The translations under genes and the position numbers were made by a program. A DNA stretch of 64,000 nt, taken from positions 3,537-67,536 of the forward strand of contig CAZYLF010000002.1 of NCBI GenBank assembly GCA_964648765.1, read 5' to 3'. Numbering within the stretch: the stretch's first letter is position 1; every line of letters starts with the position of its first letter. The notes beneath the pieces were generated by a model. That model searched no databases. It worked only from the letters and a program-made list of their open reading frames with translations, and was not told the origin of the DNA. Shown piece by piece: positions 21,720 to 40,983 of this stretch. This DNA comes from an uncultured Candidatus Saccharibacteria bacterium (GTDB taxonomy: Bacteria; Patescibacteriota; Minisyncoccia; Phycocordibacterales; JACOZG01).

Positions 21720-23390
21720 CTACCGCCGGAGCCTGACTGACAAAAGTGGCACATGATGCCACTTTTGTTGTATTTGGCCTGGCTTTTTAGAGGTTCGAGC
21801 GTGCTCTATTTCCTGCATAATAGCTTCTCGTGCTTTTATGAGGCTCAAAAAGAAAGAACTGTAGGAAAGCTGGATCTTTTTGTCGGAAATGGTGAGGTTC
21901 GAGCCAAGGCATGCGAGTATCGCTCTTTTGGTCTTTTCATCTCCATTTGCGTACCAAAGATGGGCGTAGCACGCAAAGTCAAAGGTTTGCTCTGATAGTT
22001 CTGCCCATTGTTCAACTGCCTTATTCTTAATCTTCAACTCGTCTTCAAGAAGGCCCTTCTTTCTGAGTAGGTCTGATTTTAAGGACTGATATTCCTGTTC
22101 GCCAATGATGGTTCGAGCCTTGTTGGATGGTGCGGTGAAGTTTAAGGTTAAAGACTGCAGCTGCTGCGTTACTTCTTCACACTCCTTGTGTTTGGTCCTT
22201 ATTGCAATTGAATCACTCTCGGCCTCAGTCTTGCGGACCTCATGAACATGGCGGACCGCCCAGTCACGATACTCTTCTGAAATTCTTATATCTTTAAGGA
22301 TCGCTCCAATCTGTAGATGTAGCAGTTTTACTTCTACATGCTTTTCAGTACAACCGGCATCATATCTCTTTTTGGTGCAGTTATAGTAGACATAATGATG
22401 GACGTTGCCGTTCTTGCATCGCTTTACTTTTGCTTGAGCTGTAATACTACAACCACAGGTGGCGCATTTCATAAGACCAGTAAAAGCAAACATTCGCTCC
22501 TCATGTCGTGGGCGTGGTTGATTGCTTCGGCCCATAATTTTTTGGACCCTATCAAATTCCTCTTTGGTAACCATTGGCTCATGCGCTCCTTTATTCCAAT
22601 TACCACTGTGTAGCGGAAACTCAAACCAACCGTAATAAAATGGATTCCCTAGGACTGCATAAATTGCTGATCGAGAAAGATGTTCGCCGCCAATGTTTCT
22701 ACGTGGGACCGTCCGGAGATTCAATTGCTTTCTTGAAATATTCCAAATCTGGGCCATTGAATAGTTGCCGGTAAGAGCAAGGTCAAAAAGTCTTCGGACC
22801 AAGGGAAACCTTTCAGGATCTCTTTCCAAAGTCTTATAACCCTTTTGCTTGTTTGGAGTATTGAGGTATCCGATTGGTGCGCCACTTGGCATCCAGCCAT
22901 CTCTCACTTTCTTTTGCAGACCTCGCTTCACATTCACTGATAGGTCTCGAATAAACTGGTTGGCCATTCCAAGTTCCACCTGCATCATGAGGACGTTGTC
23001 TGTCGGATAATAGGTTCGGCCGAAGGTGACGATCTGGGATATCGCACTCTGCTGCAACATCCAGCTTATCTGGCCACCATCGACAGGATTACGGGCTAGG
23101 CGGTCCAGTTTCCAGCACAGGATGCCATTGGCTTCGCCTTTATAGATTCTTTCAAGCATTGAGTTGAATACTTTCCTGCCTGGCTTCTTGGCTGATTGTG
23201 ATTCTTCAAGGATATCCAGGATTTGTAGACCTTGATCCTTTGCAATCTTCATAAGCTCGTCTTTCTGAGCATCTATGGACGCCGCTTGACGGTCTTCTGC
23301 CTCGCTGGATTTACGTGCGTAGAGGAAATATTTAATTGGTTGATTTGTCTGGTTCATTGTTTGTTTGTGTGTCAGATATGTGGGTCTCAT
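21720..23390 (-). CDS. large serine recombinase (resolvase/invertase N-domain + recombinase domain + zinc ribbon)
   Basis: N-terminal YARKSSEAEDRQ…SIDAQ catalytic Ser region, central recombinase domain and C-terminal CATCGC…C cluster. The stop overlaps the tRNA 3' exon by ~12 nt. Confidence 0.85.
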   Translation of the reverse strand: MRPTYLTHKQTMNQTNQPIKYFLYARKSSEAEDRQAASIDAQKDELMKIAKDQGLQILDILEESQSAKKPGRKVFNSMLERIYKGEANGILCWKLDRLARNPVDGGQISWMLQQSAISQIVTFGRTYYPTDNVLMMQVELGMANQFIRDLSVNVKRGLQKKVRDGWMPSGAPIGYLNTPNKQKGYKTLERDPERFPLVRRLFDLALTGNYSMAQIWNISRKQLNLRTVPRRNIGGEHLSRSAIYAVLGNPFYYGWFEFPLHSGNWNKGAHEPMVTKEEFDRVQKIMGRSNQPRPRHEERMFAFTGLMKCATCGCSITAQAKVKRCKNGNVHHYVYYNCTKKRYDAGCTEKHVEVKLLHLQIGAILKDIRISEEYRDWAVRHVHEVRKTEAESDSIAIRTKHKECEEVTQQLQSLTLNFTAPSNKARTIIGEQEYQSLKSDLLRKKGLLEDELKIKNKAVEQWAELSEQTFDFACYAHLWYANGDEKTKRAILACLGSNLTISDKKIQLSYSSFFLSLIKAREAIMQEIEHARTSKKPGQIQQKWHHVPLLSVRLRR

Positions 23391-24231
23391 TTACTGGCTC
23401 TGCCCATTTTTCGCCGTTTTTAAAGGGTGGTTCCGTAGTATCTGATTGGATACTACTGACTTCCCGTAAATTTCCCGTTATATCGGGAAAATTATCTCCG
23501 TTTTCTGTGGGTCTCACTACCTCACTTAAGGGTATGTTTCCTTCATAGGCTGTCTGGACGACATCATGCCCAGAAGGGTCTTGAATAGCAACTTCTAGTG
23601 GTAGCTGCCACTTATGCATTTTTCTTTTAAGAACATCTCCAATGCTAGTTAAAGAATTCGGGGATTTATTATTTTGGTTAGTTAGAGTATCTACGTTAAT
23701 ACTACGGTTCCTGCGTTTTCGGATACTACGGAGATGTATATCTGGATACTGCGCAACTGAATCTTTAAGTTTGAGACGCCCTTTAACATGGGCAATGCTT
23801 TTCCAAAAATCGACCGACTTAAAGTAGTACAGGTTCAGAGTTTTGAATCCACTCTTTGTCTGAACCACACCAAGGATGCTGCACTCAACAAGAAGCCGGA
23901 CCGCATTGGCAACATAGTTTCTATTCTTCTCCCCAGTTAAGTCTTGAATCGTGGTTAAGCTTGGCCAGGCGACTTGTGTCTGTGTATTTCCATGTTTCAA
24001 GATTGCGCAGTAAACAAGCGTGCAGAGCTTTGGCAACTTTTCCATATAGCCATGCTCTACAAATTCATTCTCCACGAAAAATCGAGTAGGCTTTCTCTTA
24101 CCGCGCAATAAGGACCGGTCAATCTGATTCTTCAGTTCCTCGATCTTCGCCTTGTGGTAGGCATGAGCTATCTCCACTTTCTTTTTCTTCGGGTCCAACC
24201 ACTCGAGGAAATACTTCTCGTTGTTGTTCAT
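23332..24231 (-). CDS. putative replication initiator / winged-helix DNA-binding protein
   Basis: wHTH-like segment LCTLVYCAILKHGNTQTQVAWPSLTTIQDLTGEKNRNYVANAVRLL; located next to the iteron-like array. The start may be the internal Met (24045). Confidence 0.45.
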   Translation of the reverse strand: MNNNEKYFLEWLDPKKKKVEIAHAYHKAKIEELKNQIDRSLLRGKRKPTRFFVENEFVEHGYMEKLPKLCTLVYCAILKHGNTQTQVAWPSLTTIQDLTGEKNRNYVANAVRLLVECSILGVVQTKSGFKTLNLYYFKSVDFWKSIAHVKGRLKLKDSVAQYPDIHLRSIRKRRNRSINVDTLTNQNNKSPNSLTSIGDVLKRKMHKWQLPLEVAIQDPSGHDVVQTAYEGNIPLSEVVRPTENGDNFPDITGNLREVSSIQSDTTEPPFKNGEKWAEPVNETHISDTQTNNEPDKSTN

Positions 24232-24388
24232 ATTCTGTAAGCCACACCTTTTTCACAGGCCGATAGACAAGATCAAAGACCGTCAGGAGTTTGGTAGCTT
24301 CTTCAACAAGAATTTCATCTGATGGAACCTCGCCATGTTCCTGGCGATAGATCTCTCGATATTCATCTAGTGCTTGTTTACTTAGCAT
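24119..24388 (-). CDS. small protein homologous to the 33511..33735 ORF (function unknown); C-terminal part overlaps next gene
   Basis: N-terminal 45 aa (DEYREIYRQEHGEVPSDEILVEEATKLLTVFDLVYRPVKK) align with ESFQVLYKTHFNKDISRAEAVEKGTKLLTLMKAVYKPMTKE. Confidence 0.45.
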   Translation of the reverse strand: MLSKQALDEYREIYRQEHGEVPSDEILVEEATKLLTVFDLVYRPVKKVWLTEYEQQREVFPRVVGPEEKESGDSSCLPQGEDRGTEESD

Positions 24389-24499
24389 GATGGTGTAGTG
24401 TTTGGTTAATAATTTCGACCTTTAGTCTCTTCCAGAAATAGAAAGAGCTGAGTCCCAGTTGCAAGTGACTCAGCTCTTTCCATGCAACTGGATGTTATG

Positions 24500-24860
24500 T
24501 ATCGTAGATCCTATTTCGTGCAAAATTGCGTGCATTACTTTGGGACCATCCGATTTGTCTATTCTGAGGCCCTATATTTTCCTAATTGCAGGAATTACTT
24601 CGGACCAAAGAACTATCTAATCCTAGTGCTTAAAAAAAGCAAAACATGGTGTATTACTTTTTATGGCTAGGATTATGGATTTATCCTAAGGTGTATAAAG
24701 TTCCTAACTGTAGGAATTACTCTTACCCCCCGAGGACTGTCTTAATCCTATTGTCTAAAAAGTGAAAAATGCGTTGCATTACTTTCATCTCCTCGGACAG
24801 TCATATCCTAAGAGCAAATGTAGTGCATTTCGGTGTGCATTACTTTTCCTTTAGGACCAG
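24500..24860. repeat. iteron-like array: 6 degenerate tandem repeats of ~61 bp each containing ATCCTA and TGC(G)TGCATTACTTT motifs
   Basis: kGCATTACTTy occurs at 24531, 24591, 24651, 24714, 24776 and 24836. ATCCTA occurs at ~24507, 24619, 24682, 24744 and 24805. The array lies in the intergenic region upstream of the rep-like/recombinase genes. Confidence 0.7.
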
Positions 24861-24975
24861 GTAAGTATGAGGTCCGAAGAAGTGCAAATTAGTGGGTATT
24901 GGCCGAGACAACGTAAAAAGCCCTGAATAGGCTTGGAAAAGCGTACACAGGGCTGTTTAGGGTCAAATTCGGTGT

Positions 24976-27900
24976 CTACAATATGTTCTCTCGCAATAAA
25001 TAAGCTATTACCGAAGCCTTTTCCAAGAGGAAATCCAAAATGATGAGAATCTGATTTTTTAACTGCGGATTAGTCTTGATCTTTTGCCGATTTTTAAGAA
25101 TGTAACTCCTCACAAGATTCTCCAGATAATAAACAGTGTTTACTTCTAGTTCCTTACGAGAAAGATCTGGATTCTTCTGTAGCAAATCACTAATCCAAGC
25201 AATACCCTCAGGAACAAAATTACTACCTATATCATTCAGAAGTTTTGTCAAAGCATACAAGACAGGGGTATTACCTCCCATATCTTCAGATACTTTCTTA
25301 AAGAAAGTCTTTTCTCTGTCTTTCAGAGAGCGCCATTCTTTCGCCCCTTTCTTCCATTGCAATGCTAGGAGGTATTTATGAACAACACTTTCAGCGTATC
25401 TAAGGTGATTTTCATCTGAGCATAGTTCCACAATCTTCGGATAGAAAACCTTCCAAACAGTCCAAAATTCTTCGTATTGATTTATAGAATCTTCCGCAAT
25501 AACAAACGCTTCTAGTACATCAGCCACAGCTTTCCTTCGCCTGAAATCACCAATGAGTTCCGTAAATGGCTTCACATACGTTTCAATTTCTTCTTTTGGA
25601 GAATAGAGGACAAAGTAAGCAAACTTATCTAAAAATCTATGTTCAAGCATATAGTCCAGACGCTCTTCCTTGTCCTCATTCTTAAATGCTTCTATGAGCA
25701 CAGGGCAAATTTCTCGTAAAAACTTCTTATGATTCTCGTCACTAGTTTTTAGCGGTACCAGCAGAAAAGCAGTTACGAGTATGCCGGGATCTATCTCTGC
25801 AACATTCTGTAGATCTGTATAAGAGAGTTGATTTGATAAGGCTTTATTGATCTGGGCTTTGCACTCTTTTTTAAAACGCTTTATGACAGAGATTGTAGAG
25901 AAGTCATATTTTTGTTTCTTTCGACTCTCTTCTCGAATAGACTCGCTTATTTCATCAAACTTAGGTTTAAGAAATAAGTACCCATGGAATATAGCTTTTG
26001 CATCCTCGGGACTTTCTGACCACAGATGTTGCAGAACTGCCGCGACCGCATAATCAGAGACTCGTTGGCTCATACCAATCGGATAGGAGTCGAAAAGAAC
26101 GAGAAGAAGTATCACTTTGATTTTTTCAGCATCCTTGGGAAACTTTTTGATCAATAGAGGAAGGACGTTAACTGATGCTTCTAATCCGTCGCCAACCTGA
26201 TATCGAAAACCTGCCTTCAAAGGCATAGATGCATAATCGAGTACTACTTTTTTACAAAACTCTGTATCCTTAGGAGACAGTTTGTCTGAGTAGTCTCGCA
26301 AAAGTACGGCACAGACATATGATGGAACTGACCGGTAGAATAATCTGAATTGACTCTCTTCGAGTTTATCTTTATCTAGCTGTTCCAGGATTGCTTTCGT
26401 TTCAGAAAGCGCGAGCACAGGATCATTTTCATATTGTGGGTAATTTTTTACTTCTTCCTTTCTTTCAAACTTATGACTCGACCATAATTGCAAAGGTGTA
26501 TATTTCAATGCTTCGGAACTTTTTGCCTGCGCTTCTTCACTGTGTTGTCTTAACTCTGGATCAATCTCAGGGTTGAAACTAATAAGAACTTGATCGTCTT
26601 TTTTCTCTGTAGTTATCTTCATTTTTCGACGATCCATTCTTGCCAAACAAAGTCTCCAGGTTTTATCACCATCAGTCTCTTTTGATTTGTTAGGTAGTTT
26701 TGCATAGTATTCATCAAGTATTTTCCATACCTCTTCCTGTCTAGTTTTAGACACTTCTTCCGCTTCGCCCTCATTCGCAAATAACTGATAGTTAAGTGCC
26801 TGATTTTCAAGTGAGTGATTACGATGCTTATCTTCACAAGTCTGCAGCCTCTCGTTCTTGAATAAGCCCATTGGATCATGGGCCATCGAGTAAGTGAACT
26901 TCGCACTACTCATATCGAGGTACATTCTTGAAGAATCAAAGAAAAAGAAATCCTTAGTTCTGAAAAGAATTTTTGCAATATTGAATAGCTTCGACGGTTC
27001 GGCAAGAACAGCGCTGACTACTACTGCAGTAATCGAGACGGATCGAGAATTTTTGATGAGATAAAGGCACCACTTCTCTACAACTTCAGGATCCCAGGTT
27101 TTTGCTATACCGAGCAACCAATGCTCCAGAGCCATATGAATAGATTCAAGTAATGGTGGAGCAACCTGCGTTCCCCGATATAAATTCCAAATTCTGTGAC
27201 AGGCATATTGTTTGATAGTTTGACCCGAAGCATCTACTACGACATCTATTTCTTCAGCTTCGTACTGCGCGAATTCTGATTTGGCAAAATACCCGATCGA
27301 CTTATTAGTAAATGCTAAAATAAAGTTGACCGTTTCCTGAGGGGCGACTTGCAACATCGTTCCTATTGGTGTCTGAAAAGCACTAGCTGGGTAATACTCA
27401 AGATGGCCCTCCGTGAGATCAAAGTATTGCTCTATGCCATTCCTGTAATCAGAATATGAATGCCTATCTTCACGAGGTTTATAAAACCAAAATAGATTTG
27501 CAAGTTTTATGATTTCTTTCGGAAGATGACGTGCAACTTCGGTGCTATTGATAATTGAAGAAAGCATCACTTTTACCAATTCGTAATATCGAGTTCGATG
27601 GGATGTATCCTGCGCGGCAATGACTCCATCTACAATTTCAGTCAACTCTTCTTTTATTTCCCCTGAGCCACTAAGAATAGTTCTGATGAGTTGCTCTTTG
27701 GAGCTATCACGAGAACTGAAGTAAAAATCATTCTTGGCTGTAAGGGTGTTGTAATAAAACAATGCAATCTGACTTGCTTCCTTAGTAGTTTCTCCTTGCT
27801 TATTACTTCGGTTCCAATCATCCAGTACTGGGAGGATGACATGCATATACATAAGTTGAAGCCTGTCCTTATGTTTGTTGACGAAAGCAATGGCAGAAGA

Positions 27901-29814
27901 CCACCCACTACCTTTAGGAGTCGTAAATATAGTTTCTAGTGTAAGTGCATTTGCTCGAGTTAAACCCAGACGATTCAAGAAATTGTCATCTACAGTCTTG
28001 CAGGCAATTCTCAGCAAGAAGAGAATTCTGTGTAGCAGTCTTTGTTCGATCTTGTAATTAACATTAACCACCCTAATCACTTTGGAAGAGCTTTCGACAG
28101 AAACGACTCGTTCAGGTTCCTTAAGTAATTCTTCTTCAAAAAGATCAAAGAATACTTTTGAATAATCTGAGAGGAGTACTGAGACTAAAACCTCATCTTT
28201 CCAATAATTCTCAACGGAACCATCTTGCACCGTAAATGCAATCAACTTCTTTGCTTTTTCATCACTTGCAAAAAGTTTGTCGGATAGCCAATTTCTAAAG
28301 GCACGTCGAATTGGAAGCGAACTACCTATTTCAGTGTAAAAATTATCGAAGCTGGTAGCAGTGCTAAAGGCCCTCTCGATAATCATATCTAAAGCCCACT
28401 CTTCATATACATCGTGTGTTATGAAGTATCCGCCAGCGTTTGAATCAAATTTGATAATCTCGCTCGCTTCTAGTTTCTGAAGCGCTTCATGATCAGATTC
28501 TCCAGTCCTAACGAAGAATCCTCCCTCATTTGCACGTTGCTTAGCGATCTTCAAAAAAGACTCTTCTCTTCGTCTGTGTAAATTATTTGATTGAAAACCT
28601 GAATTCTGGATCTGCTTCTTCCAAATAATTTCGCGAAAATCAGTATAGCTAATATCTGCCTTCGTCTCAGTATAATCCTGTAAATACTCACTCAGATAAA
28701 GTGGCGTTGAAAGAAGGCTTGCAAGTCTGTCATTTTTAGGAAGCTTGAATTTATGTGTCCTTGCGATTAATTCAATTTCTTCACTGGAAAGATGTGGAAT
28801 ATTCAGGGATGCAAAATTCGCTCCGTAGAATTCTTTTAGTTGGAAACGGAGATCATCAAGATAGTTATGTCGCACTGTAAAAATAACTTTCCAACCATTT
28901 GTGACTAACTCAGACAGAAACATTCTGAACACATCTTGGTCTTCGATTTCTGAAAGTCTTTCAGCCGAGTCAAAGACTACATACTTCTCATTGATATCTT
29001 TATGCTCAGCAATAAATTCTGCTGCAGTGATTTCTCCATAATCCTTGAAAAGTTGGTTTATATGGGAAGCACTTTTAAATTGTGTAACCTTAAAGACGAA
29101 AAAGGGTGTGGAATCCTTTACTGTTTCGTAAAGATCTTTTATTACCGCAGTTTTACCTACCCCTGCACCACCACTTAAAACCACAAGCGGAAAAGTTTGA
29201 GCGGTATCTTTAACACCACCCACAACAGAAGAACGGTCTAGTTTGATTGCACTTTTCCCAAAAGAGATCTCTGAACGGATAGGCTGAAGTACTGAATCAG
29301 TATATTTCTGGAGTTCAATAATGGAGTCGATGATGCCCTTCTTAAGACTAAAGAAATGTTGCGCGATACTAAAGTTCTCTTCGCAAACAAATGGCGATTC
29401 AAAGTAGCTTCCTGTCCGCCATTCGATCTCGACACCTTTTGACTTAGCGTGAGCTTCTATGTCCTTTTTGTATTGAGGATCTGTTTTCTTTTTGTCCTGT
29501 CCAAATTCTTGATTCGTATAGAAAATAATTTTATTTAGCTTCGGATGTCTCTCTTTGCCTTTATCGATGGATTCTTTAAAGTCGGCAGTATGTTGAGAGA
29601 GCGCTGTCGTATAAAATTTCGACTGCCAACCTACAACTAAGCCATTCTGTTCAACAGGATTGGTTTCGATACCAGCATGATTCTTGAACCTAAAAACACC
29701 AATATTTTTATTAAACTCCTTGCAAAATAAAAGATAACAAAGTCGTTCAAAAGCCCCTTGCTTATTACTACTAAATTTCGCACCGAAGTTGTCCCAATTC
29801 ACTTCCTGAATCAT
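24976..29814 (-). CDS. 1612-aa STAND-type P-loop NTPase (Avs-like architecture): putative N-terminal PD-(D/E)xK-like nuclease, central NTPase, long C-terminal helical repeat region
   Basis: Walker A VVLSGGAGVGKTAV, Walker B KYVVFDSAE, sensor VIFTVRHNY (hhhTxR) and then ~1250 aa of helical repeats. The first ~130 aa (…GIETNP…VVGWQSKF…) are a possible E…QxK nuclease-like core, which is speculative. Confidence 0.75.
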   Translation of the reverse strand: MIQEVNWDNFGAKFSSNKQGAFERLCYLLFCKEFNKNIGVFRFKNHAGIETNPVEQNGLVVGWQSKFYTTALSQHTADFKESIDKGKERHPKLNKIIFYTNQEFGQDKKKTDPQYKKDIEAHAKSKGVEIEWRTGSYFESPFVCEENFSIAQHFFSLKKGIIDSIIELQKYTDSVLQPIRSEISFGKSAIKLDRSSVVGGVKDTAQTFPLVVLSGGAGVGKTAVIKDLYETVKDSTPFFVFKVTQFKSASHINQLFKDYGEITAAEFIAEHKDINEKYVVFDSAERLSEIEDQDVFRMFLSELVTNGWKVIFTVRHNYLDDLRFQLKEFYGANFASLNIPHLSSEEIELIARTHKFKLPKNDRLASLLSTPLYLSEYLQDYTETKADISYTDFREIIWKKQIQNSGFQSNNLHRRREESFLKIAKQRANEGGFFVRTGESDHEALQKLEASEIIKFDSNAGGYFITHDVYEEWALDMIIERAFSTATSFDNFYTEIGSSLPIRRAFRNWLSDKLFASDEKAKKLIAFTVQDGSVENYWKDEVLVSVLLSDYSKVFFDLFEEELLKEPERVVSVESSSKVIRVVNVNYKIEQRLLHRILFLLRIACKTVDDNFLNRLGLTRANALTLETIFTTPKGSGWSSAIAFVNKHKDRLQLMYMHVILPVLDDWNRSNKQGETTKEASQIALFYYNTLTAKNDFYFSSRDSSKEQLIRTILSGSGEIKEELTEIVDGVIAAQDTSHRTRYYELVKVMLSSIINSTEVARHLPKEIIKLANLFWFYKPREDRHSYSDYRNGIEQYFDLTEGHLEYYPASAFQTPIGTMLQVAPQETVNFILAFTNKSIGYFAKSEFAQYEAEEIDVVVDASGQTIKQYACHRIWNLYRGTQVAPPLLESIHMALEHWLLGIAKTWDPEVVEKWCLYLIKNSRSVSITAVVVSAVLAEPSKLFNIAKILFRTKDFFFFDSSRMYLDMSSAKFTYSMAHDPMGLFKNERLQTCEDKHRNHSLENQALNYQLFANEGEAEEVSKTRQEEVWKILDEYYAKLPNKSKETDGDKTWRLCLARMDRRKMKITTEKKDDQVLISFNPEIDPELRQHSEEAQAKSSEALKYTPLQLWSSHKFERKEEVKNYPQYENDPVLALSETKAILEQLDKDKLEESQFRLFYRSVPSYVCAVLLRDYSDKLSPKDTEFCKKVVLDYASMPLKAGFRYQVGDGLEASVNVLPLLIKKFPKDAEKIKVILLLVLFDSYPIGMSQRVSDYAVAAVLQHLWSESPEDAKAIFHGYLFLKPKFDEISESIREESRKKQKYDFSTISVIKRFKKECKAQINKALSNQLSYTDLQNVAEIDPGILVTAFLLVPLKTSDENHKKFLREICPVLIEAFKNEDKEERLDYMLEHRFLDKFAYFVLYSPKEEIETYVKPFTELIGDFRRRKAVADVLEAFVIAEDSINQYEEFWTVWKVFYPKIVELCSDENHLRYAESVVHKYLLALQWKKGAKEWRSLKDREKTFFKKVSEDMGGNTPVLYALTKLLNDIGSNFVPEGIAWISDLLQKNPDLSRKELEVNTVYYLENLVRSYILKNRQKIKTNPQLKNQILIILDFLLEKASVIAYLLRENIL

Positions 29815-29819
29815 CGTAT

Positions 29820-30983
29820 TTACCGATTTCCTTTTGCTCGATTGTGTGTCTTACACAACATTTCGCAATTTTTAATATCGGTCTTTCCACCCTTACTCCA
29901 GGCCGAGACATGGTCGGCATCCATATCTGCTAGACTCCAAATCTTATCTTTGTTCGCATCGTGACCGATCGCACAATGTGAACAGTTAGAAGTACCTTTC
30001 TTCTTTGCGGCAGCAGTTTGAGCTTCATAGACTGAACGTTTGGTTGAGTCCTCAAATACTCGAACTTCAAGTAGTTTTGTTTCGACCTCTCCTCCTAAAA
30101 CATACTCAAAAATACCTTTGCGATTTTTTACAAAACCGTCGGCATAGAGTTTCTGAACCGTAGCAGATACTTTAGCGGGATTATATTTTTTCTTATGATA
30201 CGTTTGGTAGAGTCTATTCCACTCAAGGCCTTTCATCTCGCTTTCAACTTCAGTAAATGTAGTTGAAATCCAATCAATAACAATTTCGAAATGCTTTTTT
30301 AGCTCGGTAATGTTTTTGTCGTTGCGATGCTTGCTCATGTAACTATCGATATCACCACCAGAAACCCAATCTAAGGCTCGTTCCAAATATGCCTGGCGTT
30401 TAATATCACCTGCAATGTACGCACTCCATTTCTGGACGTTAGCGTTCTGACTGTTACTAAATTCTTCACGCGCAAGTGTGACAAATGGTCCAGAATATAC
30501 CGCATTAAGAATCTCTTGTTCGGTTAAAGGAACTCCCGCAATATTGATAGTCTTAAACCAGTCTTTGATCTCCGGCTCATCACCCTCACATACATATACC
30601 AACAACTTAGTATTCATGATTTGCTCTCGTTGGCTCTCAGCCATGCCGCTGTAGTACTGTTCATGGCCATTCCTATCTTTGACAGCAAACTTTCCTGTCA
30701 CAAAGCGGCCAATACTTGTGATACGCTGCTGACCATCTAACACCTCAAACTTATCTTTGCCAGCTTGATTAAAATAAATTAAACCTATTGGGTAACCTTT
30801 CAAAATTGAGTCAATCACAGCAACGTCACGCTTACCATCAGCATAAATATAATTACGTTGATACTCTGGTTGAATAGTTAATTTTCCAGATAGACCAAAC
30901 AACCCCTTTCCTTCGAGTTCGTTGTAGACGAAGCCGTCGCAAACTTCTCTAATTGTAATGTCATTTTTTAAGGTTGTTTTCAT
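29820..30983 (-). CDS. DUF262 (ParB-like nuclease/NTPase) – HNH endonuclease fusion (GmrSD/SspE-like architecture)
   Basis: [19 protein letters not shown] motif; C-terminal CSHCAIGH…[12 protein letters not shown]…[17 protein letters not shown] motif. Confidence 0.8.
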
Positions 30984-30985
30984 AA

Positions 30986-32107
30986 TTATTTTTTCTTATG
31001 TTTGATAAATAACTTTTTAAATGTTTCTTTGCCATTTATATAGGTACTACGTCCGTAAACACCTTCAGGATCCTGACCAATTCCTCGGTTTGCACCAAGT
31101 ATCTCAAACTGCTCAGAAGAATATTTGTCCATAAAACTTATCGGCACGCCAATAACACCACCATAGTCGCTTGGGATCGCATCTACATACGAAACATCAA
31201 TGGCATCGTAATTATCATATTTATCATATGATGTTTTACCCTGCATTTTTTTGTTGAACTTTAAGTTATCTTCCATACTCATTAAGCTGAGTGGTTGATG
31301 TCTTCGCCCATGATCCAAATTAGTGTACCAACGCACACCCTGGACTCTCGTGATATAAACTTTTTTACCTTGTTCATTTACCTTTATTTCACGTACCTGG
31401 TCTAGATTAGCTATCGCCTCAGGTATTTCGTAAAACATAGCTCCACCGTTCACTTTTGCATTATTGCCAAACCATACTTTGTTTGCCTTAATCATAGGAA
31501 AAACTTCTTTGTATGTAATCGCGTTCATATTTCCAATGATCAAAAATTGCTTTTCGTAATCAAAAAGTTGCGTAATGTATTCACGAAATAAACTAAATGG
31601 AGGATTGGTGACTACAATGTCAGACTGTTTGAGTAACTCAACACATTCATCACTTCTAAAATCACCATCGCCCTCAAGCGGAGACCACTCGTTATTTTTG
31701 TTAGCTCTAAGTTGCTTAGCAATATCTTCTAGTGTAAAAGAACCATCGCCATCAACATCACCAACCTCGTTAATAATAAATTTGTTAGCAACAACTTTTG
31801 GTCGCCCTTTGACTGGTTTGAGGGTAACGTCATCGCCGAATAGTGTTATTTGAGTGTTCGCAACTGGAGAGGGTTTGTAACTAGTTGTAATAAGTCTTTT
31901 TAGTCCTAAACGATTAAAATTCAAGACGAAGTAACGAAAAAAGTTACTTTCAAACGGGTCATCACAGTTACTGTAAATTACCTTACCTTTAAAAGTATTC
32001 GGGTTATATTCAAGATATGATTCCACCTCTTTTTGAATATCAGAAAATTGAGTATAAAACTCATCATTTTTTGCTTTTTTTGCGTCTCTTAGATTCTTGT
32101 TTGCCAT
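30986..32107 (-). CDS. N6-adenine DNA methyltransferase (gamma-class; DEFYT motif X, NPPF motif IV)
   Basis: NDEFYTQF and [11 protein letters not shown] motifs. The start is set at MANKN (32107), which avoids overlap with the Fic gene; the ORF track extends to 32206. Confidence 0.75.
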
Positions 32108-32111
32108 AAAT

Positions 32112-33014
32112 TTATTTCTGTTTGCCAGGGCTATAAACAAACCCTTCTGCAATCTTCCAAACACCTTTCTCTCGGAAAGCTGGGATGTTTTGACGACGAG
32201 CGGCATTAGTTAGCGCAGATGCTGATGCGTGGCTTGTCTTTGCATAATCAGAAAGAGTAACGATCTTCTCGCCCTTAAGATAAGTAATTCTTTTGTGGAG
32301 TGATTCGGTAAGAGAAAGCGCGAGGATCTTTTCCATCTTCTTTGCAGTCTTCTTGTCTCGATATTCAGCAAAGGTGCTGTAATAATCCTTTTTTTCTTTG
32401 TCTCGAATGATAATTCCAGGGAAACCAAGTCTCTGGAGTTGGTAATTTATAAGTACACGACCAATACGACCATTGCCATCACAGAATGGGTGAATAGTTT
32501 CAAATTCAAGGTGGAATTTTGCAATCCTGTCTACAAAAAATGACTTAACATCAGCAACATACTCTGACAAAAGTGCATCAATCATTTTTTCTACTTGTTC
32601 AGGGGCCGGAGCAACGTGTGTACCAACTCTCACATATTCACCGATCTTTCTGAAACGACCGGCAATATCATCTTTAATCCCGCCAATAAGCATTTGGTGG
32701 AGGAATAAAATAACTTCTCTGTTTACTTCAGTTTCTTGAGATTTATTTCTAATGTAAGCAACAACTCGAGCAAGATTCTTAGCCTCGAACACTTCTCGGA
32801 CCGAAACTTCACGAGCTACTTCCATTTCCAAAAGAATCTTTTCCGTCTCCTGGAGAGTAAGGGTTGAGTTTTCGATGGCGTTTGAGTTATAAACCGCCTC
32901 GGCAACCTCCGCCTCATCTACCATAACCAAAAGTGACTCTTTTCCTTTTTTAAGAGCTTCGTATTCGGTCTTGAGGTTTTGGATTCTATTTACGAGGGGT
33001 TTTGTAATTGCCAT
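32112..33014 (-). CDS. Fic/Doc family protein (AMPylase-type Fic motif)
   Basis: Canonical Fic motif HPFCDGNGRIGR. Confidence 0.85.
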   Translation of the reverse strand: MAITKPLVNRIQNLKTEYEALKKGKESLLVMVDEAEVAEAVYNSNAIENSTLTLQETEKILLEMEVAREVSVREVFEAKNLARVVAYIRNKSQETEVNREVILFLHQMLIGGIKDDIAGRFRKIGEYVRVGTHVAPAPEQVEKMIDALLSEYVADVKSFFVDRIAKFHLEFETIHPFCDGNGRIGRVLINYQLQRLGFPGIIIRDKEKKDYYSTFAEYRDKKTAKKMEKILALSLTESLHKRITYLKGEKIVTLSDYAKTSHASASALTNAARRQNIPAFREKGVWKIAEGFVYSPGKQK

Positions 33015-33039
33015 ATGTTTTAGTTAATTAACCTTTAAT

Positions 33040-33068
33040 ATTATAGGGTTTTCACTACTTCTTGTCAA
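33040..33068 (-). promoter_or_regulatory. promoter (minus strand) TTGACA-N17-TATAAT driving the Fic-MTase-HNH-STAND operon
   Basis: Reverse complement reads TTGACAagaagtagtgaaaacccTATAAT. Confidence 0.6.
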
Positions 33069-33197
33069 TTTTTAGTGAATGATAGGCTATTTTAGCACCT
33101 TATTCACTAGTTTTTGCTATATAACCCAGTAATCTAAGGTACTTATAAGGTGTGGTAAGGCCTTTACTTTTTTGACTTCTAGGAATAATGTTGCGAC

Positions 33198-33506
33198 ATG
33201 AGTCAATTATTAATATCAGTTGTAGGAGGTCTTCTTGTTATAATCATCGCTGCTATATTCGGCCTTGGTGGGAACACAAAGGTAACTGTCCATGGTGGTG
33301 GAAGGGTTAAGAAGACAGGAAAATGGATAATCATTATCTCGGTAGTGATGTTTTTCATAGGACTTTCCCTATGCAAAAAGAGTGATCCAACTCAGTGGGG
33401 CTTTGATCTAAATATTTCCTCTACTCTCTACGGCGTTACAATCATGCTCTACAGTGGATTATTTTTTGTTGTCGGTAAAATTGTAGCCTGGTTTCAAAGA
33501 CCATAA
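33198..33506 (+). CDS. small membrane protein, 102 aa
   Basis: Three TM helices. Confidence 0.45.
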   Translation: MSQLLISVVGGLLVIIIAAIFGLGGNTKVTVHGGGRVKKTGKWIIIISVVMFFIGLSLCKKSDPTQWGFDLNISSTLYGVTIMLYSGLFFVVGKIVAWFQRP

Positions 33507-33510
33507 ACTT

Positions 33511-33735
33511 ATGCAGCTCGCAGACAAAGACATCGAGAGTTTTCAGGTGCTGTATAAAACGCATTTCAATAAAGATATTTCGCGTGCAGAGGCAGTAGAA
33601 AAAGGCACCAAGCTCTTAACATTGATGAAAGCTGTTTATAAACCCATGACCAAGGAACAGTTCGATGCTATCCAGAAACGGAGAAAAGATACATTACCAG
33701 CTTTGATTAAAAGACTGGAACAAGATCAACTCTGA
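33511..33735 (+). CDS. small protein homologous to the 24119..24388 ORF
   Basis: See the alignment above; 74 aa. Confidence 0.5.
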   Translation: MQLADKDIESFQVLYKTHFNKDISRAEAVEKGTKLLTLMKAVYKPMTKEQFDAIQKRRKDTLPALIKRLEQDQL

Positions 33736-34115
33736 AACTCTACCTCGAACGGATACATTCCCATTCCGCAAGTTCCTTGGAGTGTGCCGAGTTTGCCTTC
33801 ACCAATATCAATATCAGTTGAACCTGTTTGTGGAAGCGATTTGCTTATACCCATACTTGGAATTCGAACTGATGATGAACAGTCAAAGGTTCCTTTAGTG
33901 TTGAATCTGATGATTGTTGGAATACCGGCTTTTGCAATACTCTTTCGGGGTTGATATCCACCCCTCGCAGTTATTTCGATAATCTGCTTTCCGTCTACAA
34001 CGCTAACGTTGTTTGCATTTGCCACCTGTCCAGTGTCACCACCACTTCTGGTGAGCATAAAAGCTCCACCGATGAGGACTACTGCTACAATAATTGAGAT
34101 AATAGTTGCTTTCAT
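33726..34115 (-). CDS. membrane-anchored periplasmic beta-sandwich (cupredoxin/CopC-like?) protein
   Basis: N-terminal TM anchor then a beta-rich domain with a GTCGMGMYPFEVEF Met/Cys-rich end. The start is set at the internal Met, which follows TATAAT-N8 (leaderless-like). Confidence 0.45.
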   Translation of the reverse strand: MKATIISIIVAVVLIGGAFMLTRSGGDTGQVANANNVSVVDGKQIIEITARGGYQPRKSIAKAGIPTIIRFNTKGTFDCSSSVRIPSMGISKSLPQTGSTDIDIGEGKLGTLQGTCGMGMYPFEVEFQS

Positions 34116-34128
34116 AATTGGAATTATA

Positions 34129-35160
34129 CTAGAAGTTAAAGACTGGCGGAATAACCCCAATCACGACCAAACTATTAATAAGATTGAAGAGAGCGAACAT
34201 GATCACGATCAGTCCTGCCGTCTTGAAGAAGATACCTGCCTTTGAACTCTTTTGAATACTGAACGAGCTGAAGCTGATGAGAGCCAGGACCGGCAACGTA
34301 CCGAGTGCGAATGCGAGCATGGTAAGTCCTCCGGTGAGAAAACTTCCTGTGGTAAGGGTATAAAGCTGCATCGATTGAGTGAATCCGCATGGCAGGAAGA
34401 AGGTTGCAATACCAACGAGAAGCGGCGTGAGAGTGTGATTGAACTTCGATACACCATGAGCATGCTTGGCGATAAACTTCGGCATTGATGGCTGAAGTTT
34501 CTTGGCCCAGTGAAATGTGTCGAGGAGATTGATACCAAGGATAAGCATGACGATACCAATTATCAAACTCAATACAAATGTTGCAGAAGTGTTGAGTGTG
34601 AACGCCGATCCAATAGCACCTATAACTCCACCCAGGACAAAGAATGAGGCGATTCGTCCGGCATGGAACATGAGCTGAGGTCGAACCTTGTCACCCTCTT
34701 TGGCGAAAGTGGCGGACATCGATAGGACCAGACCACCGACAACTGCCATACAAGTTGAAAGCGATGCGATAATACCGATCACAAATGCGGTCCCGTAAGT
34801 TACGTTGCCTGCACTGACAAGATTTACAATTCCCATTTTCTGCAGCACTACGAAGAGCACCGCGAAGCCTAGTGCGATCGGGACGGCAATCTTGAAGTCT
34901 CCCCATTTGGCATTGTGCTGCTGTTTTTCAACCGAGACAGTATAGCCATGAGGTTTGAGCGGTATGGTGAGTTCCTCTGCAATCTGCTCCGGTGTCTTAC
35001 CACCAAAGTCTCCGGTGACTTCCATTGAATGGTGCTTTAGACTTAATTTAACATGGGTGACATTTGGCAAATCTCCAATCTCGCTTTCGGTCATAAGTAC
35101 ACATGCGTTGCAGTGCATTCCATGTACGTGAAAGGTGTATTTTTGTGTTTGTGTAGTCAT
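34129..35160 (-). CDS. heavy-metal-associated (HMA) domain fused to a multi-TM membrane domain (DsbD/CcdA- or TauE-like)
   Basis: N-terminal HVHGMHCNACV HMA motif followed by ~8 TM helices. Confidence 0.65.
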   Translation of the reverse strand: MTTQTQKYTFHVHGMHCNACVLMTESEIGDLPNVTHVKLSLKHHSMEVTGDFGGKTPEQIAEELTIPLKPHGYTVSVEKQQHNAKWGDFKIAVPIALGFAVLFVVLQKMGIVNLVSAGNVTYGTAFVIGIIASLSTCMAVVGGLVLSMSATFAKEGDKVRPQLMFHAGRIASFFVLGGVIGAIGSAFTLNTSATFVLSLIIGIVMLILGINLLDTFHWAKKLQPSMPKFIAKHAHGVSKFNHTLTPLLVGIATFFLPCGFTQSMQLYTLTTGSFLTGGLTMLAFALGTLPVLALISFSSFSIQKSSKAGIFFKTAGLIVIMFALFNLINSLVVIGVIPPVFNF

Positions 35161-35174
35161 TGGTAATTTCAGTC

Positions 35175-35390
35175 TTATCTCTGCTCTCTTTCAAGTTGTC
35201 GACGATAGAGAGCGCATACACCGGCTGAGATCGAGATGAGCGTGAGAACGATGGCATCATTGATGCAGTGCTGATACGTAAAGCCCCAGATAGTTCCGCC
35301 TTCGCCTGCAAGCCATGCGCCGATAAGCGCTAGTGCTCCCCAGATTGCCGTTGCGATTGATACTCCATGGATAAATGATGATTTTTTCAT
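35175..35390 (-). CDS. small membrane protein, 71 aa
   Basis: Two TM helices. Confidence 0.4.
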   Translation of the reverse strand: MKKSSFIHGVSIATAIWGALALIGAWLAGEGGTIWGFTYQHCINDAIVLTLISISAGVCALYRRQLEREQR

Positions 35391-35420
35391 AAGATTTATG
35401 TTAATTATTTTTAAATAAGT

Positions 35421-36062
35421 TTACTTGTACCACTGAACATACCAAGACTGCATCTGCTGAATCTCCTTTGATTGTGAGGAGATAATGTTCTTTGCGAGCT
35501 GCTGCATTTCAGGACGATTTGTACCTGACTGAAGCATGTTCGCCATCATGATCGCCAACTGGTGATGCGGAATCATTTCCTCGATAAATGCCTTGTCAAA
35601 ATCAGAGGCGTTTTCTAGTGCTGTCATATCCTCCTGTCCACCCATGTGCATTCCATATCCAGACATCATGCCGCCACCCATCATTCCTGTGCTTACCTTT
35701 GGCACAGCGCTTCCGAACCAATCCTGGTACCAGCCATTCATACTTTGAATCTCCGTTGTCTGAGCTGCAATAATGGCCGTTGCTAGAGTTTTAATTTCAG
35801 GATGCTTTGCTTTTTGAAGCGCAAGGTTTGCCATGGCGATAGCTCCCTCATGGTGAGGAATCATCTGCTCGATAAAGTGTTTGTCGATGGTGCTGGCGAC
35901 TTGGTTATTTCCAGGCACTCTTTGGTCATACGATGAGTTATTTCGCCAGTTCATCATTCCGTAGCCTCCATATCGAAACATCGGAGTGAGCACTGAAACA
36001 AGAAGAATTCCAATAACTATTCCTCCTATTCCATATAATATTTTGTTGTTTTGATTGTTCAT
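35421..36062 (-). CDS. DUF305 family protein (duplicated HH(E/Q)xAI motifs)
   Basis: MIPHHEGAIAMA and MIPHHQLAIMMA repeats are typical of DUF305, which is associated with copper resistance. Confidence 0.7.
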   Translation of the reverse strand: MNNQNNKILYGIGGIVIGILLVSVLTPMFRYGGYGMMNWRNNSSYDQRVPGNNQVASTIDKHFIEQMIPHHEGAIAMANLALQKAKHPEIKTLATAIIAAQTTEIQSMNGWYQDWFGSAVPKVSTGMMGGGMMSGYGMHMGGQEDMTALENASDFDKAFIEEMIPHHQLAIMMANMLQSGTNRPEMQQLAKNIISSQSKEIQQMQSWYVQWYK

Positions 36063-36085
36063 ATTTTTGTAGTTAGATTAATAAG

Positions 36086-36286
36086 TTACTCTCCGGCGTA
36101 CTTCACAGGATCGGCTGTGAAATGATTCTTGCAGTGGATAGCGCAAAAGTAATAGGTTTTACCTTTGTAGTCTGCGCTTGCCTTAATACTGTCTGCATCA
36201 AGTTCCATTCCGCAGACCAAGTCGAAAGCAACTGCCGGATCAAGATTTTTATACTTTTTATTGCCTTTAAGCTTTTTTGTTTGCAT
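36086..36286 (-). CDS. YHS/TRASH-domain small metal-binding protein
   Basis: VCGMELD…YYFCAIHC motif. Confidence 0.65.
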   Translation of the reverse strand: MQTKKLKGNKKYKNLDPAVAFDLVCGMELDADSIKASADYKGKTYYFCAIHCKNHFTADPVKYAGE

Positions 36287-36399
36287 AGATTTTTGAGATT
36301 AGAAATAGTAATAGAAGCTCTATGCAAAGAGGGGCTGTTTTCAAATAATGAAAGCCAACGGGTAATTTTCCGAGGACGACTAAGTTGCCGTTCTGGATC

Positions 36400-36720
36400 A
36401 AGTCGTACTCGACATAATATCCGACTGGCTAGGATAGAATCTCGATGTTTTATGTAAAGGAATCCTAGGCTGAGAAATACAGCAAATAGAAGCGCGAGTA
36501 AGAAAATAAATGGAACTGATGGGACCACGCTGAAGAACGATATGAATGCTTGGATGTGATGGACCGACATTGCCGCAATGTTTTCCGGACATGGTGTATT
36601 GTCTACGGCCGATGCAATACAACCAGTGGCATGATTAGCCCCATGACTCATTGAGGTAAAACCGAACACCCCTATTACCAGGACACTTGTGATTATTAGT
36701 AATGAGAGGAGTTTTTTCAT
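36400..36720 (-). CDS. small secreted/membrane His/Cys-rich protein (N-terminal part of ORF 36103..36720)
   Basis: Signal/TM then SMSHGANHATGCIASAVDNTPCPENIAAMSVHH. The ORF reads on through the YHS gene in another frame, and that tail looks non-coding, so the 3' end is uncertain. Confidence 0.35.
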
Positions 36721-39053
36721 TATAGTTTTTTAGCTTTAATTCGGAGCGAGTTCGACACCACAGACACCGACGACATTGCCATAGCAAAGCCCGCGAATAC
36801 TGGATTCAAAAGCCAACCGAAGACCGGATACAATGCCCCTGCTGCAAGCGGAATACCCACAATGTTGTAGATGAAAGCCCAGAAAAGATTCTGTTTGATT
36901 CCACGCATGGTTATTTTCGAAAGCTTGATAGCTTTCACGAGCTTTGAAATATCTCCACCAAGGAGCGTAATACCGGCCGATTCTATCGCTACGTCAGTTC
37001 CGGTCCCCATGGCAATACCAACATCAGCCTGGGCGAGCGCAGGGGCATCGTTTACGCCATCACCTGCCATTGCAACCACTCGACCCTGTGATTGCAGCTC
37101 CTGAATCTTTTTCAATTTATCTTCAGGAAGCACGTGAGCAACTACATCATCGATGCCGACAAGAGATGCAATGTACTTAGCGGCCTTTTCATCATCCCCA
37201 GTAAGCATAACCACTTTAATACCGAGAGTGTGGAGATTCTTTACGGCCTCAACTGATTCAGCTTTTATTTCATCAGCAACCATAACAAAGCCGAGGACTT
37301 TCTCTTTGGTAGCTAGAATGACAGGTGTTTTTCCTTGAGAAGTAAACTCATTAAGTTTTGCGGTATCAAAAGGAATTTTGAGATCACTTACAAGTTTTGC
37401 GTTTCCAACAAAGTATTCGGTGCCATTGATCGAACCCTTGAGTCCTTTGCCTTGTATGCCTTCAAAATTTGAAATATCTGAAATAGAAATATTCTTTTCT
37501 TGTGCGTAGCTCACGATCGCATGTGCAATCGGATGTTCTGATCTCTTTTCTAGTGAAGCAAGAATCGAAACAAGTTCTTCGTCTTTAATATCAGAAAGAT
37601 TTTGTGTATCGACAAGAGTTGGCTTGCCCTTAGTAATGGTTCCTGTCTTATCAACCACAACTGTATTTACCTTATGGAGTTTCTCAAGTGTTGCCGCATC
37701 TTTGATAAGAATGCCTTCCTTGGCTCCTTTACCGACTCCAACAATGATCGCTGTGGGTGTAGCTAAGCCGAGAGCACATGGACATGCAATTACGAGAATG
37801 CCGACAAATGATACAAGGCCAAATGACAGTGCCTGTGAAAATCCTAGATATTGCGAGCCGAAGATAAGCCATGCGCCAAGTGTTAGAAATGCGATTACCA
37901 AAACAATAGGCACAAAGACTGATGAGATTTTATCTGCGAGTGCCTGAATCGGCGCTTTGCTACCCTGAGCATCTTCGACCATCTTAATTATCTGAGCGAG
38001 AAGCGTTTCGGACCCGACTTTTGTAGCTTTAAATGTAAATGAGCCACTTGTATTGATAGTTCCGGATACTACGCTGTCACCAATCTTTTTCTGGGCTGGC
38101 ATAGGCTCTCCTGTGACCATTGATTCATCGATGAACGAGCTACCTTCGGTGATAACACCGTCCACCGGAATCTTTGCGCCTGGTTTAACGATGATAAGAT
38201 CTCCATGTTTTACCTCATTTACCGAAATCTCCACTTCCTTTCCATCACGAATAACCAAGGCTGTTTTAGCTTGGAGATTGAGGAGTTTTTCTATAGCGTC
38301 ACCTGTCTTTATTTTCGATCGAGCTTCAAGATATTTACCGAGAGCAATAAAGGTAATGACCACAATCGTTACATCGTAATACTGATAGTCGACGTTTATA
38401 AATGGTCGCAGTGCTTCCTCAAAAGCGGTAACCGCAAAGCTGTATAAAAAGGCTGCTGTGGTTCCAATACCGATCAGCGTATCCATGTTTGCCTTGCCGT
38501 ATCGAAGGAATCTGTAAAAGCCAAGTAGGTATGGCTTGCCGACAACGAAGAGGATATATGTCGCTAATATTGGGAGAAGATGATGGATAAACTCTTTGAT
38601 GGTGTAACTCATTTCACCTACGACTCCGTATTGTGCAAGGATATCCCAACCCATAACCAGCGCAGCAAAGATAGCGATTGGAATTGCAGAAAGCAGCATT
38701 GTTCGCATACCTGCAACCTCCGCTAGTTTCTCTTTCTTTGATTGATTGAGTCCAAGGTGTGTAGCGTGCTCATCGGCAGACATGCCCATCTCTTCTGCCG
38801 ATTGACCACCATGATCATGCGACATCTCTTGTTGATCTAGAGCCAGGGAGTAACCGAGGGGTTCTATCTTCTTTGAAAGCTCTTGTGCACTCGTTTTTGA
38901 TTCATCAAAAGCTACTTTAGCCTTTTCGGTTCCATAGTTTACTTCAGCAGAGTGGACCCCTTCAGTCTTCTTGAAAGTCTTCTCGATAATACCAGCGCAA
39001 GAAGCGCAATGCATTCCTTTTACTCTGTAAGTTTTAGTTTGAGGATGATTCAT
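36720..39053 (-). CDS. copA: copper-translocating P1B-type ATPase
   Basis: HMA GMHCASCAG, CPC motif IACPCALGLATP, DKTGTIT and GDGVNDAP. The start is placed at MNHPQT (39053), which abuts the csoR stop. Confidence 0.9.
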   Translation of the reverse strand: MNHPQTKTYRVKGMHCASCAGIIEKTFKKTEGVHSAEVNYGTEKAKVAFDESKTSAQELSKKIEPLGYSLALDQQEMSHDHGGQSAEEMGMSADEHATHLGLNQSKKEKLAEVAGMRTMLLSAIPIAIFAALVMGWDILAQYGVVGEMSYTIKEFIHHLLPILATYILFVVGKPYLLGFYRFLRYGKANMDTLIGIGTTAAFLYSFAVTAFEEALRPFINVDYQYYDVTIVVITFIALGKYLEARSKIKTGDAIEKLLNLQAKTALVIRDGKEVEISVNEVKHGDLIIVKPGAKIPVDGVITEGSSFIDESMVTGEPMPAQKKIGDSVVSGTINTSGSFTFKATKVGSETLLAQIIKMVEDAQGSKAPIQALADKISSVFVPIVLVIAFLTLGAWLIFGSQYLGFSQALSFGLVSFVGILVIACPCALGLATPTAIIVGVGKGAKEGILIKDAATLEKLHKVNTVVVDKTGTITKGKPTLVDTQNLSDIKDEELVSILASLEKRSEHPIAHAIVSYAQEKNISISDISNFEGIQGKGLKGSINGTEYFVGNAKLVSDLKIPFDTAKLNEFTSQGKTPVILATKEKVLGFVMVADEIKAESVEAVKNLHTLGIKVVMLTGDDEKAAKYIASLVGIDDVVAHVLPEDKLKKIQELQSQGRVVAMAGDGVNDAPALAQADVGIAMGTGTDVAIESAGITLLGGDISKLVKAIKLSKITMRGIKQNLFWAFIYNIVGIPLAAGALYPVFGWLLNPVFAGFAMAMSSVSVVSNSLRIKAKKL

Positions 39054-39057
39054 ATTT

Positions 39058-40697: not shown

Positions 40698-40983
40698 TCC
40701 TTACCCCTGCCCCAGAGATCACATCAAAGGGGCTTTTTTCTTTAGTTGACGCAGATTAAGAATTTGCTAAGATGTTGAGGTAACGTTCTTTGACAACAGA
40801 ATATATATCAAGAGTGAGCTGAGGGAATGGCCCGATGAAGCTCCGACAACCTGCCCCATAATCTGTGGGCAAGGTGCCAAATCCAACCCCTGCGGGAAGA
40901 TATCTATCTGTTTAAAGTAATTCAATAGAAACAACACCGCACTCGCGGTGTTGTTTCGTGTTTATCTTTAATAAGGAGAGAAA

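Follow-up and report, generated by a model that had tools for sequence, protein, structure and literature searches.

Four genes lie head to tail on the minus strand at positions 24976-33014 of the DNA stretch analyzed here (64,000 nucleotides (nt) in full, hereafter the window), and encode in 5' to 3' order a Fic protein, an N6-adenine DNA methyltransferase (MTase), a nuclease with a ParB-like DUF262 domain and an HNH domain, and a giant STAND NTPase. The locus raises the question whether these proteins function together as an undescribed composite defence system, as an earlier note on this DNA had proposed, or whether separate defence modules share a transcription unit. According to the comparative analysis presented below, the block is likely a defence island organized as one transcription unit, in which three independently mobile modules of known kinds, namely a Fic gene, a restriction-modification (R-M) pair and an Avs4 gene, stand head to tail in the cargo slot of a mobile element.

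Gene Layout and Transcription Signals

The open reading frames (ORFs) and the transcription signals of the block, with protein lengths in amino acids (aa), are as follows:

33040..33068, minus strand: sigma-70-type promoter TTGACA-17-TATAAT, 25 nt 5' of the Fic ATG
32112..33014, minus strand: Fic gene, 300 aa (ORF and Pfam)
30986..32107, minus strand: gene for an EcoRI-family N6-adenine DNA MTase, 373 aa (ORF, Pfam and PADLOC)
29820..30983, minus strand: DUF262/HNH nuclease gene, 387 aa (ORF, Pfam and PADLOC)
24976..29814, minus strand: Avs4 gene (large NTPase), 1612 aa (ORF, NCBIfam, PADLOC and PDB)
24918..24934, minus strand: terminator-like hairpin with T-run, about 40 nt past the Avs4 stop codon (consensus scan only)

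The intergenic gaps, read from the sequence, are 4 nt (Fic/MTase), 2 nt (MTase/nuclease) and 5 nt (nuclease/Avs4). The length of the MTase was counted from the ATG located 4 nt past the Fic stop codon; a 406-aa ORF starting at 32206 and overlapping Fic was rejected as having an unlikely start, and the gene callers on identical metagenome contigs likewise give 373 aa. The promoter is a perfect match to the consensus and the sole 12/12 match within 24000..33800, all remaining matches being 9/12, although matches of at least 9/12 were not enriched overall in this interval (15 vs. 23 expected). It was kept in homologous Fic loci, and a promoter match with at most one mismatch per hexamer was found 5' of 59 of 82 Fic homologues. 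No terminator-like hairpins were detected between the four genes in the consensus scan. The G+C content of the block (0.37-0.41) is below that of its flanks. Gene coordinates, the 2-5 nt separations and the consensus promoter were thus confirmed as the earlier note had given them. Co-transcription and translational coupling of fic-M-R-avs4 are suggested by the gene spacing alone.

Identification of the Encoded Proteins

All four gene calls of the earlier note were confirmed by domain matches, and all four proteins matched PADLOC models.

The 1612-aa STAND NTPase was identified as an orthologue of Avs4 (AVAST type 4), with the function that this assignment predicts. It matched the NCBIfam equivalog NF041815 with 2051.7 bits (cut-off: 1500; protein 6-1612, model 1-1579 of 1579), the PADLOC Avs4 model with 1964 bits and, as the only match in the PDB, EcAvs4 (8DGF_A, 1354 bits, 5-1612 vs. 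4-1587, collinear), while general Pfam domains gave weak NACHT/AAA matches. The domain order is an N-terminal Mrr-like nuclease, the STAND NTPase and a C-terminal sensor, and the Mrr-like nuclease core GIETNP...GWQSKFY, the Walker A motif GVGKTAVIK and the Walker B motif V(V)DSAE are identical or nearly so in EcAvs4. For Avs4, activation by the phage portal protein and an effect exerted by tetramerized Mrr nuclease domains have been described (bioRxiv 10.64898/2026.08.25.746987). The four nearest Avs4 homologues outside the 90% cluster (94, 85, 79, and 78% identity) have unrelated neighbours and their own upstream regions of 60-280 nt, often with a small HTH_3 gene, and a Fic gene or the R-M pair was found beside none of them (0/4). 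In its relatives Avs4 is autonomous as a single gene.

The MTase matched the Pfam family EcoRI_methylase with 404 bits and the PADLOC model MTase_II over its full length with 343 bits, and an NPPF motif is present in its translation. The nuclease matched Pfam GmrSD_N (81.7 bits) and HNH (28.8 bits), joining a ParB-like DUF262 domain with a DGQQR motif to a classical HNH domain with CxxC pairs, as well as the PADLOC model REase_II (PDLC03418, 285 bits, protein 6-386 vs. model 5-371 of 372). Sequence searches of the PDB returned no match for either the MTase or the nuclease. The two genes match type II models over their full length and are regarded as an autonomous two-gene R-M module of predicted activity.

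Homologues of the nuclease with 70-93% identity were found in more than 585 species of Patescibacteria, Bacteroidota, Chloroflexota, Proteobacteria, Elusimicrobiota and other taxa. The gene neighbourhood was surveyed in 80 nuclease loci (L004-L083) with as much as 10 kb of flanking sequence at either end. Of 67 informative loci, which come from different species, 66 had a co-oriented EcoRI-family MTase gene upstream of the nuclease gene, Avs4 was found next to the pair in none of the 57 loci having at least 3 kb of downstream sequence, and just two weak Fic matches were found near the pair in all 80 loci. The pair is mostly chromosomal and occurs in very diverse metagenome-assembled genomes (MAGs) without a mobile element of the kind found in the window. 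Two further observations were made in this survey: the nuclease is, unusually for a restriction enzyme, more strongly conserved (70-93% identity) than the MTase with which it is paired (40-95%), and 16 loci have an extra 0.5-3 kb of DNA between the M and R genes.

A GmrSD-type (type IV) nuclease was considered and rejected, on the grounds that the C-terminal domain is an HNH domain (PF01844), that DUF1524 gave no match and that the MTase partner is near-universal. The R-M-like pair described in the earlier note was confirmed. The pairing with an MTase argues for cutting that would be blocked by modification over cutting that would depend on it. Since the N-terminal DUF262 domain resembles that of the type IV enzymes GmrSD and BrxU, NTP dependence of the nuclease is possible. 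Avoidance of palindromes in the 64-kb window, used for guessing the R-M site, gave nothing significant (observed/expected: AATT 0.98, GAATTC 0.94, CAATTG 0.72 with z = -1.4).

The Fic protein matched Pfam Fic with 73.7 bits. Its best match in the defence databases was the PADLOC candidate PDC-S04 (PDLC04836, 125 bits, protein 39-229 vs. model 28-221 of 244); the PADLOC SoFic model gave 90.7 bits. Class II Fic proteins have an HxFx(D/E)GNGRxxR active site and an N-terminal (S/T)xxxE(G/N) inhibitory helix, definitions for which Engel et al. in 2012 are reportedly the source. In an alignment of 12 homologues both HPFCDGNGRIGR, the active-site motif of the window protein, and SNAIEN, its N-terminal inhibitory motif, were invariant, and the best PDB relatives of the protein are FICD-type class II Fic proteins (87 bits). 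The protein was assigned to class II as a FICD-like, autoinhibited AMPylase type of predicted activity. Orthology to SoFic was rejected, the NCBIfam model NF046030 scoring 31.9 bits against a cut-off of 550 and the SoFic structures 36 bits against the 87 bits of FICD.

The C-terminus of the Fic protein also forms a conserved domain, roughly 50 aa long. Its C-terminal 80 aa gave no Pfam match at E ≤ 1, the comparison with an HTH_17 protein using hhalign gave no helix-turn-helix (HTH) match, and the AlphaFold2 model of the protein built from the 12-sequence alignment was poor (pLDDT 42.7). A DNA-binding role of this domain remains a guess because no HTH was found by Pfam or hhalign.

Assortment of the Modules in Sister Elements

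The complete four-gene block was found solely in the window, in identical metagenome contigs (L001-L003) and in one related element (L089), in which the block has about 89% DNA identity and the proteins are 90-95% identical. Other sister elements carry subsets. One of them (L095) has the copper cluster that lies upstream of the block, together with Fic-M-R, and homology ends exactly at the stop codon of the restriction endonuclease (REase) gene, no Avs4 being present; another (L084) has the copper cluster and Avs4 (94% identity) without Fic or R-M; a third (L175) has kept M-R-Avs4, with homology beginning at 32121. A fourth (L091) has flanks homologous to those of the window on the left (33120..32111) and on the right (24962..24414) and carries between them Fic (90% identity), a type III Mod/Res system, Pycsar (PycC 339 bits, PycTM 129 bits) and a YgjP-like gene.

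The breakpoints of DNA homology all fall at gene boundaries (33120, 32111-32121, 29814-29820, and 24977). No convincing repeats were found at the module junctions, where integron-like sites were sought, and a plasmid megablast search using the whole block returned no match. Because the sister elements carry subsets of the genes and the breakpoints fall at gene boundaries, the region is best read as a cargo slot whose flanks are conserved and between which entire defence modules are swapped.

These data bear strongly on the question posed at the outset. Conservation of the four-gene synteny across diverged lineages, which the earlier note had put forward as a check, was not found: beyond the window, L001-L003 and L089, the surveys gave 0/57 for Avs4 beside the R-M pair, 0/4 for Fic or the R-M pair beside Avs4, and 2/80 for Fic near the R-M pair. 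The proposal that the four genes function as one system conflicts with the independent assortment of the modules (L084, L095, L175), and the proposal of an undescribed system conflicts with the assignment of the STAND NTPase to Avs4, a described single-gene system, of the R-M pair to the PADLOC type II models and of Fic to PDC-S04. A novel composite system is unsupported because its components map to separate known kinds and assort independently in nature. The earlier note itself had named, as outcomes speaking against its proposal, homologues that never co-occur elsewhere or a separate known system for each gene with no functional dependence, and this is essentially what was observed.

Two of the sister elements showed further gene content. 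At 4224..5703 of L175 an AAA_14/DUF4143 ATPase gene and a 62-aa DUF7695 gene stand in place of Fic and its promoter. The array at 8001..15063 of L091, also present in L092, is headed by Fic and tightly packed, and its YgjP-like gene encodes a putative metallopeptidase; this 241-aa gene also closes type I R-M arrays in L101, L102, and L108.

The Operator-like Palindrome and the Gene Neighbours of Fic

The region upstream of the promoter contains one further element:

33073..33109, minus strand: operator-like palindrome TAGTGAAT-N21-ATTCACTA, ending 4 nt 5' of the -35 box

A third half-site, TAGTGAA, lies inside the spacer of the Fic promoter. The palindrome has one match in the window vs. none in 100 shuffles. 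It was found in 32 of 176 loci, every one of them a Fic locus and always immediately 5' of Fic; no R-M-only or Avs4-only locus among the 176 searched had it. Among the Fic loci it was present in 31 of 82 overall and in 6 of 6 at 85% identity or more, with invariant half-sites and a spacer varying from N19 to N21. In two loci (L096, L165) the palindrome is duplicated. Its frequency was similar with R-M cargo (7/19) and without (6/27), that is, there was no specific link to R-M. The simplest reading is a putative operator for the autoregulation of a toxin-like gene. Regulation at this operator would reach the cargo too, since the cargo lacks room for a promoter of its own.

The metagenome survey included 80 further Fic loci with 64-90% identity. 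In many of these, R-M systems of several types lie directly 3' of Fic, often after 2-6 nt, and the Fic/cargo junction TAA-aatat-ATG is recurrent. Type I R-M systems were found 3' of Fic in three architectures (HsdM-Ymh-HsdS-HsdR-YgjP; HsdR-x-HsdM/S fusion; RadC-HsdR-DUF3800-HsdM), and types II and III were likewise found 3' of Fic homologues. Other Fic homologues precede housekeeping genes (epimerase, M24 peptidase, PolA), and close homologues stand alone beside housekeeping genes in L088 (96% identity) and L093 (88%). At 1094..1180 of L154 a 68%-identical Fic gene is apparently followed by the N-terminus of a DUF262-HNH nuclease without an intervening MTase gene, the contig ending there. The literature search for a functional link between Fic and R-M yielded only an anecdotal locus description, and a Fic/DOC gene within a type I R-M locus is on record (PMC9881135).

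The Mobile Element and the Surrounding Window

Beyond the Avs4 stop codon the following features were found:

24510..24866, no strand assigned: iteron-like array that forms the cargo slot's right flank; its six units, each roughly 61 nt long, share the invariant core AGTAATnC
24231..23332: HTH_36 gene adjoining the iteron-like array (Pfam)
23390..21720: large serine recombinase gene beyond the HTH_36 gene (Pfam)

The iteron-like region, located between the Avs4 stop codon and the HTH_36 gene, is conserved in L091 and L175. Its units, about 65% alike, were found by repeat search and manual alignment; at this similarity Tandem Repeats Finder reported nothing in the region. The array may be a replication origin or a binding array for the recombinase or a regulator. 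The large serine recombinase and the HTH_36 gene beyond the right flank are the reason for inferring a mobile element. The named relatives of the window proteins belong to Paceibacterota/Patescibacteria, and the element is probably of Patescibacteria type, in a genome that is probably of the Patescibacteria (Candidate Phyla Radiation, CPR).

The block is immediately preceded by a copper/heavy-metal cluster (33726..39119: cupredoxin, HMA-DsbD_2, DUF305, P-type ATPase), and such a cluster accompanies the defence slot in the sister elements L084, L089, L095, and L175. Elsewhere in the window, a 509-aa AAA/nSTAND3-like ATPase is encoded at 50364..51893 in a G+C-rich patch (0.51-0.54) and has weak matches to PADLOC IetA (38 bits); it could be a further defence-related gene. 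The N-terminal 100 aa or so of a 233-aa protein encoded at 15321..16022 match the E1 region of many PADLOC E1-E2 (CBASS-associated) models with at most 59 bits, probably representing a ThiF/MoeB-like E1 domain. A SAM riboswitch is located on the plus strand at 40802..40906 (Rfam RF00162, 66.6 bits) and a tRNA-Ala(GGC) gene at 1449..1524.

Alternative Explanations

Several observations weigh against three modules that merely share a transcript. Block persistence in L089, together with that of M-R-Avs4 in L175, indicates that the junctions are lasting ones, and selection favouring co-expression or synergy is conceivable. The Avs4 gene of the window has lost the private upstream region seen in its homologues; its expression would now come from read-through, a genuine coupling at the level of regulation. 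R-M genes were found 3' of Fic in 13 of 46 informative loci and 5' of it in 0 of 45 (Fisher p = 9e-5), a comparison biased by a limited query set that was drawn from downstream genes and by several loci being related to each other. Fic preceding R-M far above chance expectation hints at more than neighbourliness.

The last of these points bears on the possibility that Fic is an autoregulated leader or controller whose C-terminal domain would bind TAGTGAAT-N21-ATTCACTA and thereby gate the cargo, or else a back-up toxin of R-M systems in the manner of PrrC; in that case the modules R-M and Avs4 would still be mechanistically independent and yet under Fic control. The operator is invariant, specific to Fic loci, and both abuts and overlaps the promoter; the cargo follows 2-6 nt behind Fic with the recurrent junction described above; the 13 loci just mentioned have R-M systems of types I, II, and III immediately 3' of Fic; and the recorded Fic/DOC gene in a type I R-M locus fits the same picture. 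However, the operator is equally frequent with and without R-M cargo, as simple autoregulation of a toxin predicts, many Fic homologues precede housekeeping genes or stand alone, and the R-M pair is almost never accompanied by Fic. The C-terminal HTH that a controller would need was not found by Pfam or hhalign, the AlphaFold2 model is of low confidence, and the choice of R-M queries from downstream genes biases the 13-versus-0 comparison. We consider this explanation unlikely. Its broader form, in which the Fic family would be the autoregulated leader of a Patescibacteria-type defence expression platform functionally tied to interchangeable cargo (type I/II/III R-M, Pycsar, Avs4), appears equally doubtful. 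If it were true, Fic would gate transcription so as to delay or tune the toxic defence genes, or would be a back-up toxin acting upon restriction inhibition.

A new type of interdependent composite system formed by all four proteins, with for example Fic or Avs4 sensing the state of the R-M module, is very unlikely. Gaps of 2-5 nt, a single promoter and the retention of the block in L089 with proteins 90-95% identical would be expected of such a system, but the sub-combinations all exist in close relatives (L084, L095, L175), Avs4 accompanies the R-M pair in 0 of 57 species and R-M the nearest Avs4 homologues in 0 of 4, and every gene has a full-length match to a known model of its own.

It is more improbable still that Fic and R-M mainly stabilize the mobile element through post-segregational killing or addiction, leaving Avs4 as the sole true anti-phage cargo: addiction modules are classically represented by R-M systems and Fic/Doc toxins, and the element has a serine recombinase, an iteron-like array and metal-resistance cargo, but addiction is compatible with defence rather than exclusive of it, the R-M pair sits mostly on the chromosomes of very diverse MAGs that lack an element of this kind, and Fic has an intramolecular inhibitory helix instead of a labile antitoxin partner.

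Proposed Mode of Action and Significance

For the defence island of three independent modules the following mode of action is proposed, in which the enzymatic activities, the phage triggers and any synergy between modules are what we infer from the assignments made above. The promoter at 33068..33040, flanked by the conserved palindromic operator, would drive a single mRNA, fic-M-R-avs4, stopping at the hairpin at 24934..24918. As a first line of defence, the EcoRI-family MTase would methylate host adenines and the DUF262-HNH nuclease would cut unmethylated incoming DNA, the M-before-R order letting protection come ahead of restriction. In a second, abortive line, the C-terminal sensor of Avs4 would bind the phage portal protein, whereupon the STAND NTPase would oligomerize and the Mrr-like nuclease become activated. 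The class II Fic protein, as an autoinhibited AMPylase, would most likely be a stand-alone toxin or abortive-infection module of the SoFic/PDC-S04 type.

What appears to be new here is the combination of known kinds (Avs4, type II R-M, Fic) rather than a new four-component immune system. The locus is a clean natural example of how streamlined genomes, probably of the CPR, reassort defence genes as cassettes with gene-precise borders and join them in what is probably one transcription unit. A testable lead is offered by the Fic gene with its conserved operator, which recurs in first position before very different R-M and defence cargos. The pair of DUF262-HNH nuclease and EcoRI-family MTase is very widespread, and the nuclease is an uncharacterized restriction-enzyme candidate worth characterizing.

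Comparison with Known Systems

Defence-island hotspots with swappable cargo between conserved flanks are known, for example from P2/P4 prophages. The window resembles these in having conserved left (Fic and promoter) and right (iteron-like) flanks and differing cargo in sister elements. It differs from them in that the cargo joins the transcription unit of the leader gene via junctions of 2-6 nt, and in that the host lineage is Patescibacteria-like and the element has a serine recombinase.

The R-M pair shares with type II systems that have an EcoRI-family gamma-type m6A MTase and an HNH-family REase the separate MTase and nuclease, the M-then-R order and the strict conservation of the pair in hundreds of species, whereas its nuclease has the N-terminal ParB-like DUF262 domain found in type IV GmrSD and BrxU. 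With GmrSD, BrxU and SspE this nuclease has in common that an N-terminal DUF262 domain with the DGQQR motif is joined to a C-terminal His-Me finger nuclease; unlike in these proteins, the C-terminus is a classical HNH domain (PF01844) with CxxC pairs instead of DUF1524, and the nuclease is obligately paired with an MTase.

The Fic protein SoFic is accepted as a defence protein that stands alone (bioRxiv 10.1101/2022.05.11.491447; PMC12249575). The Fic gene of the window agrees with SoFic and PDC-S04 in the canonical Fic motif, the single-gene module and the location in a defence island. Its product is nearer to FICD-type class II proteins and shorter (300 aa), a small downstream antitoxin like AS1 is absent, and its promoter bears the conserved palindromic operator.

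The agreement is closest for Avs4, which is collinear with EcAvs4 over its full length and has the same Mrr-like core, the same Walker A and B motifs and a long C-terminal sensor, but which in the window is without an upstream region of its own and is encoded 5 nt behind a restriction endonuclease gene.

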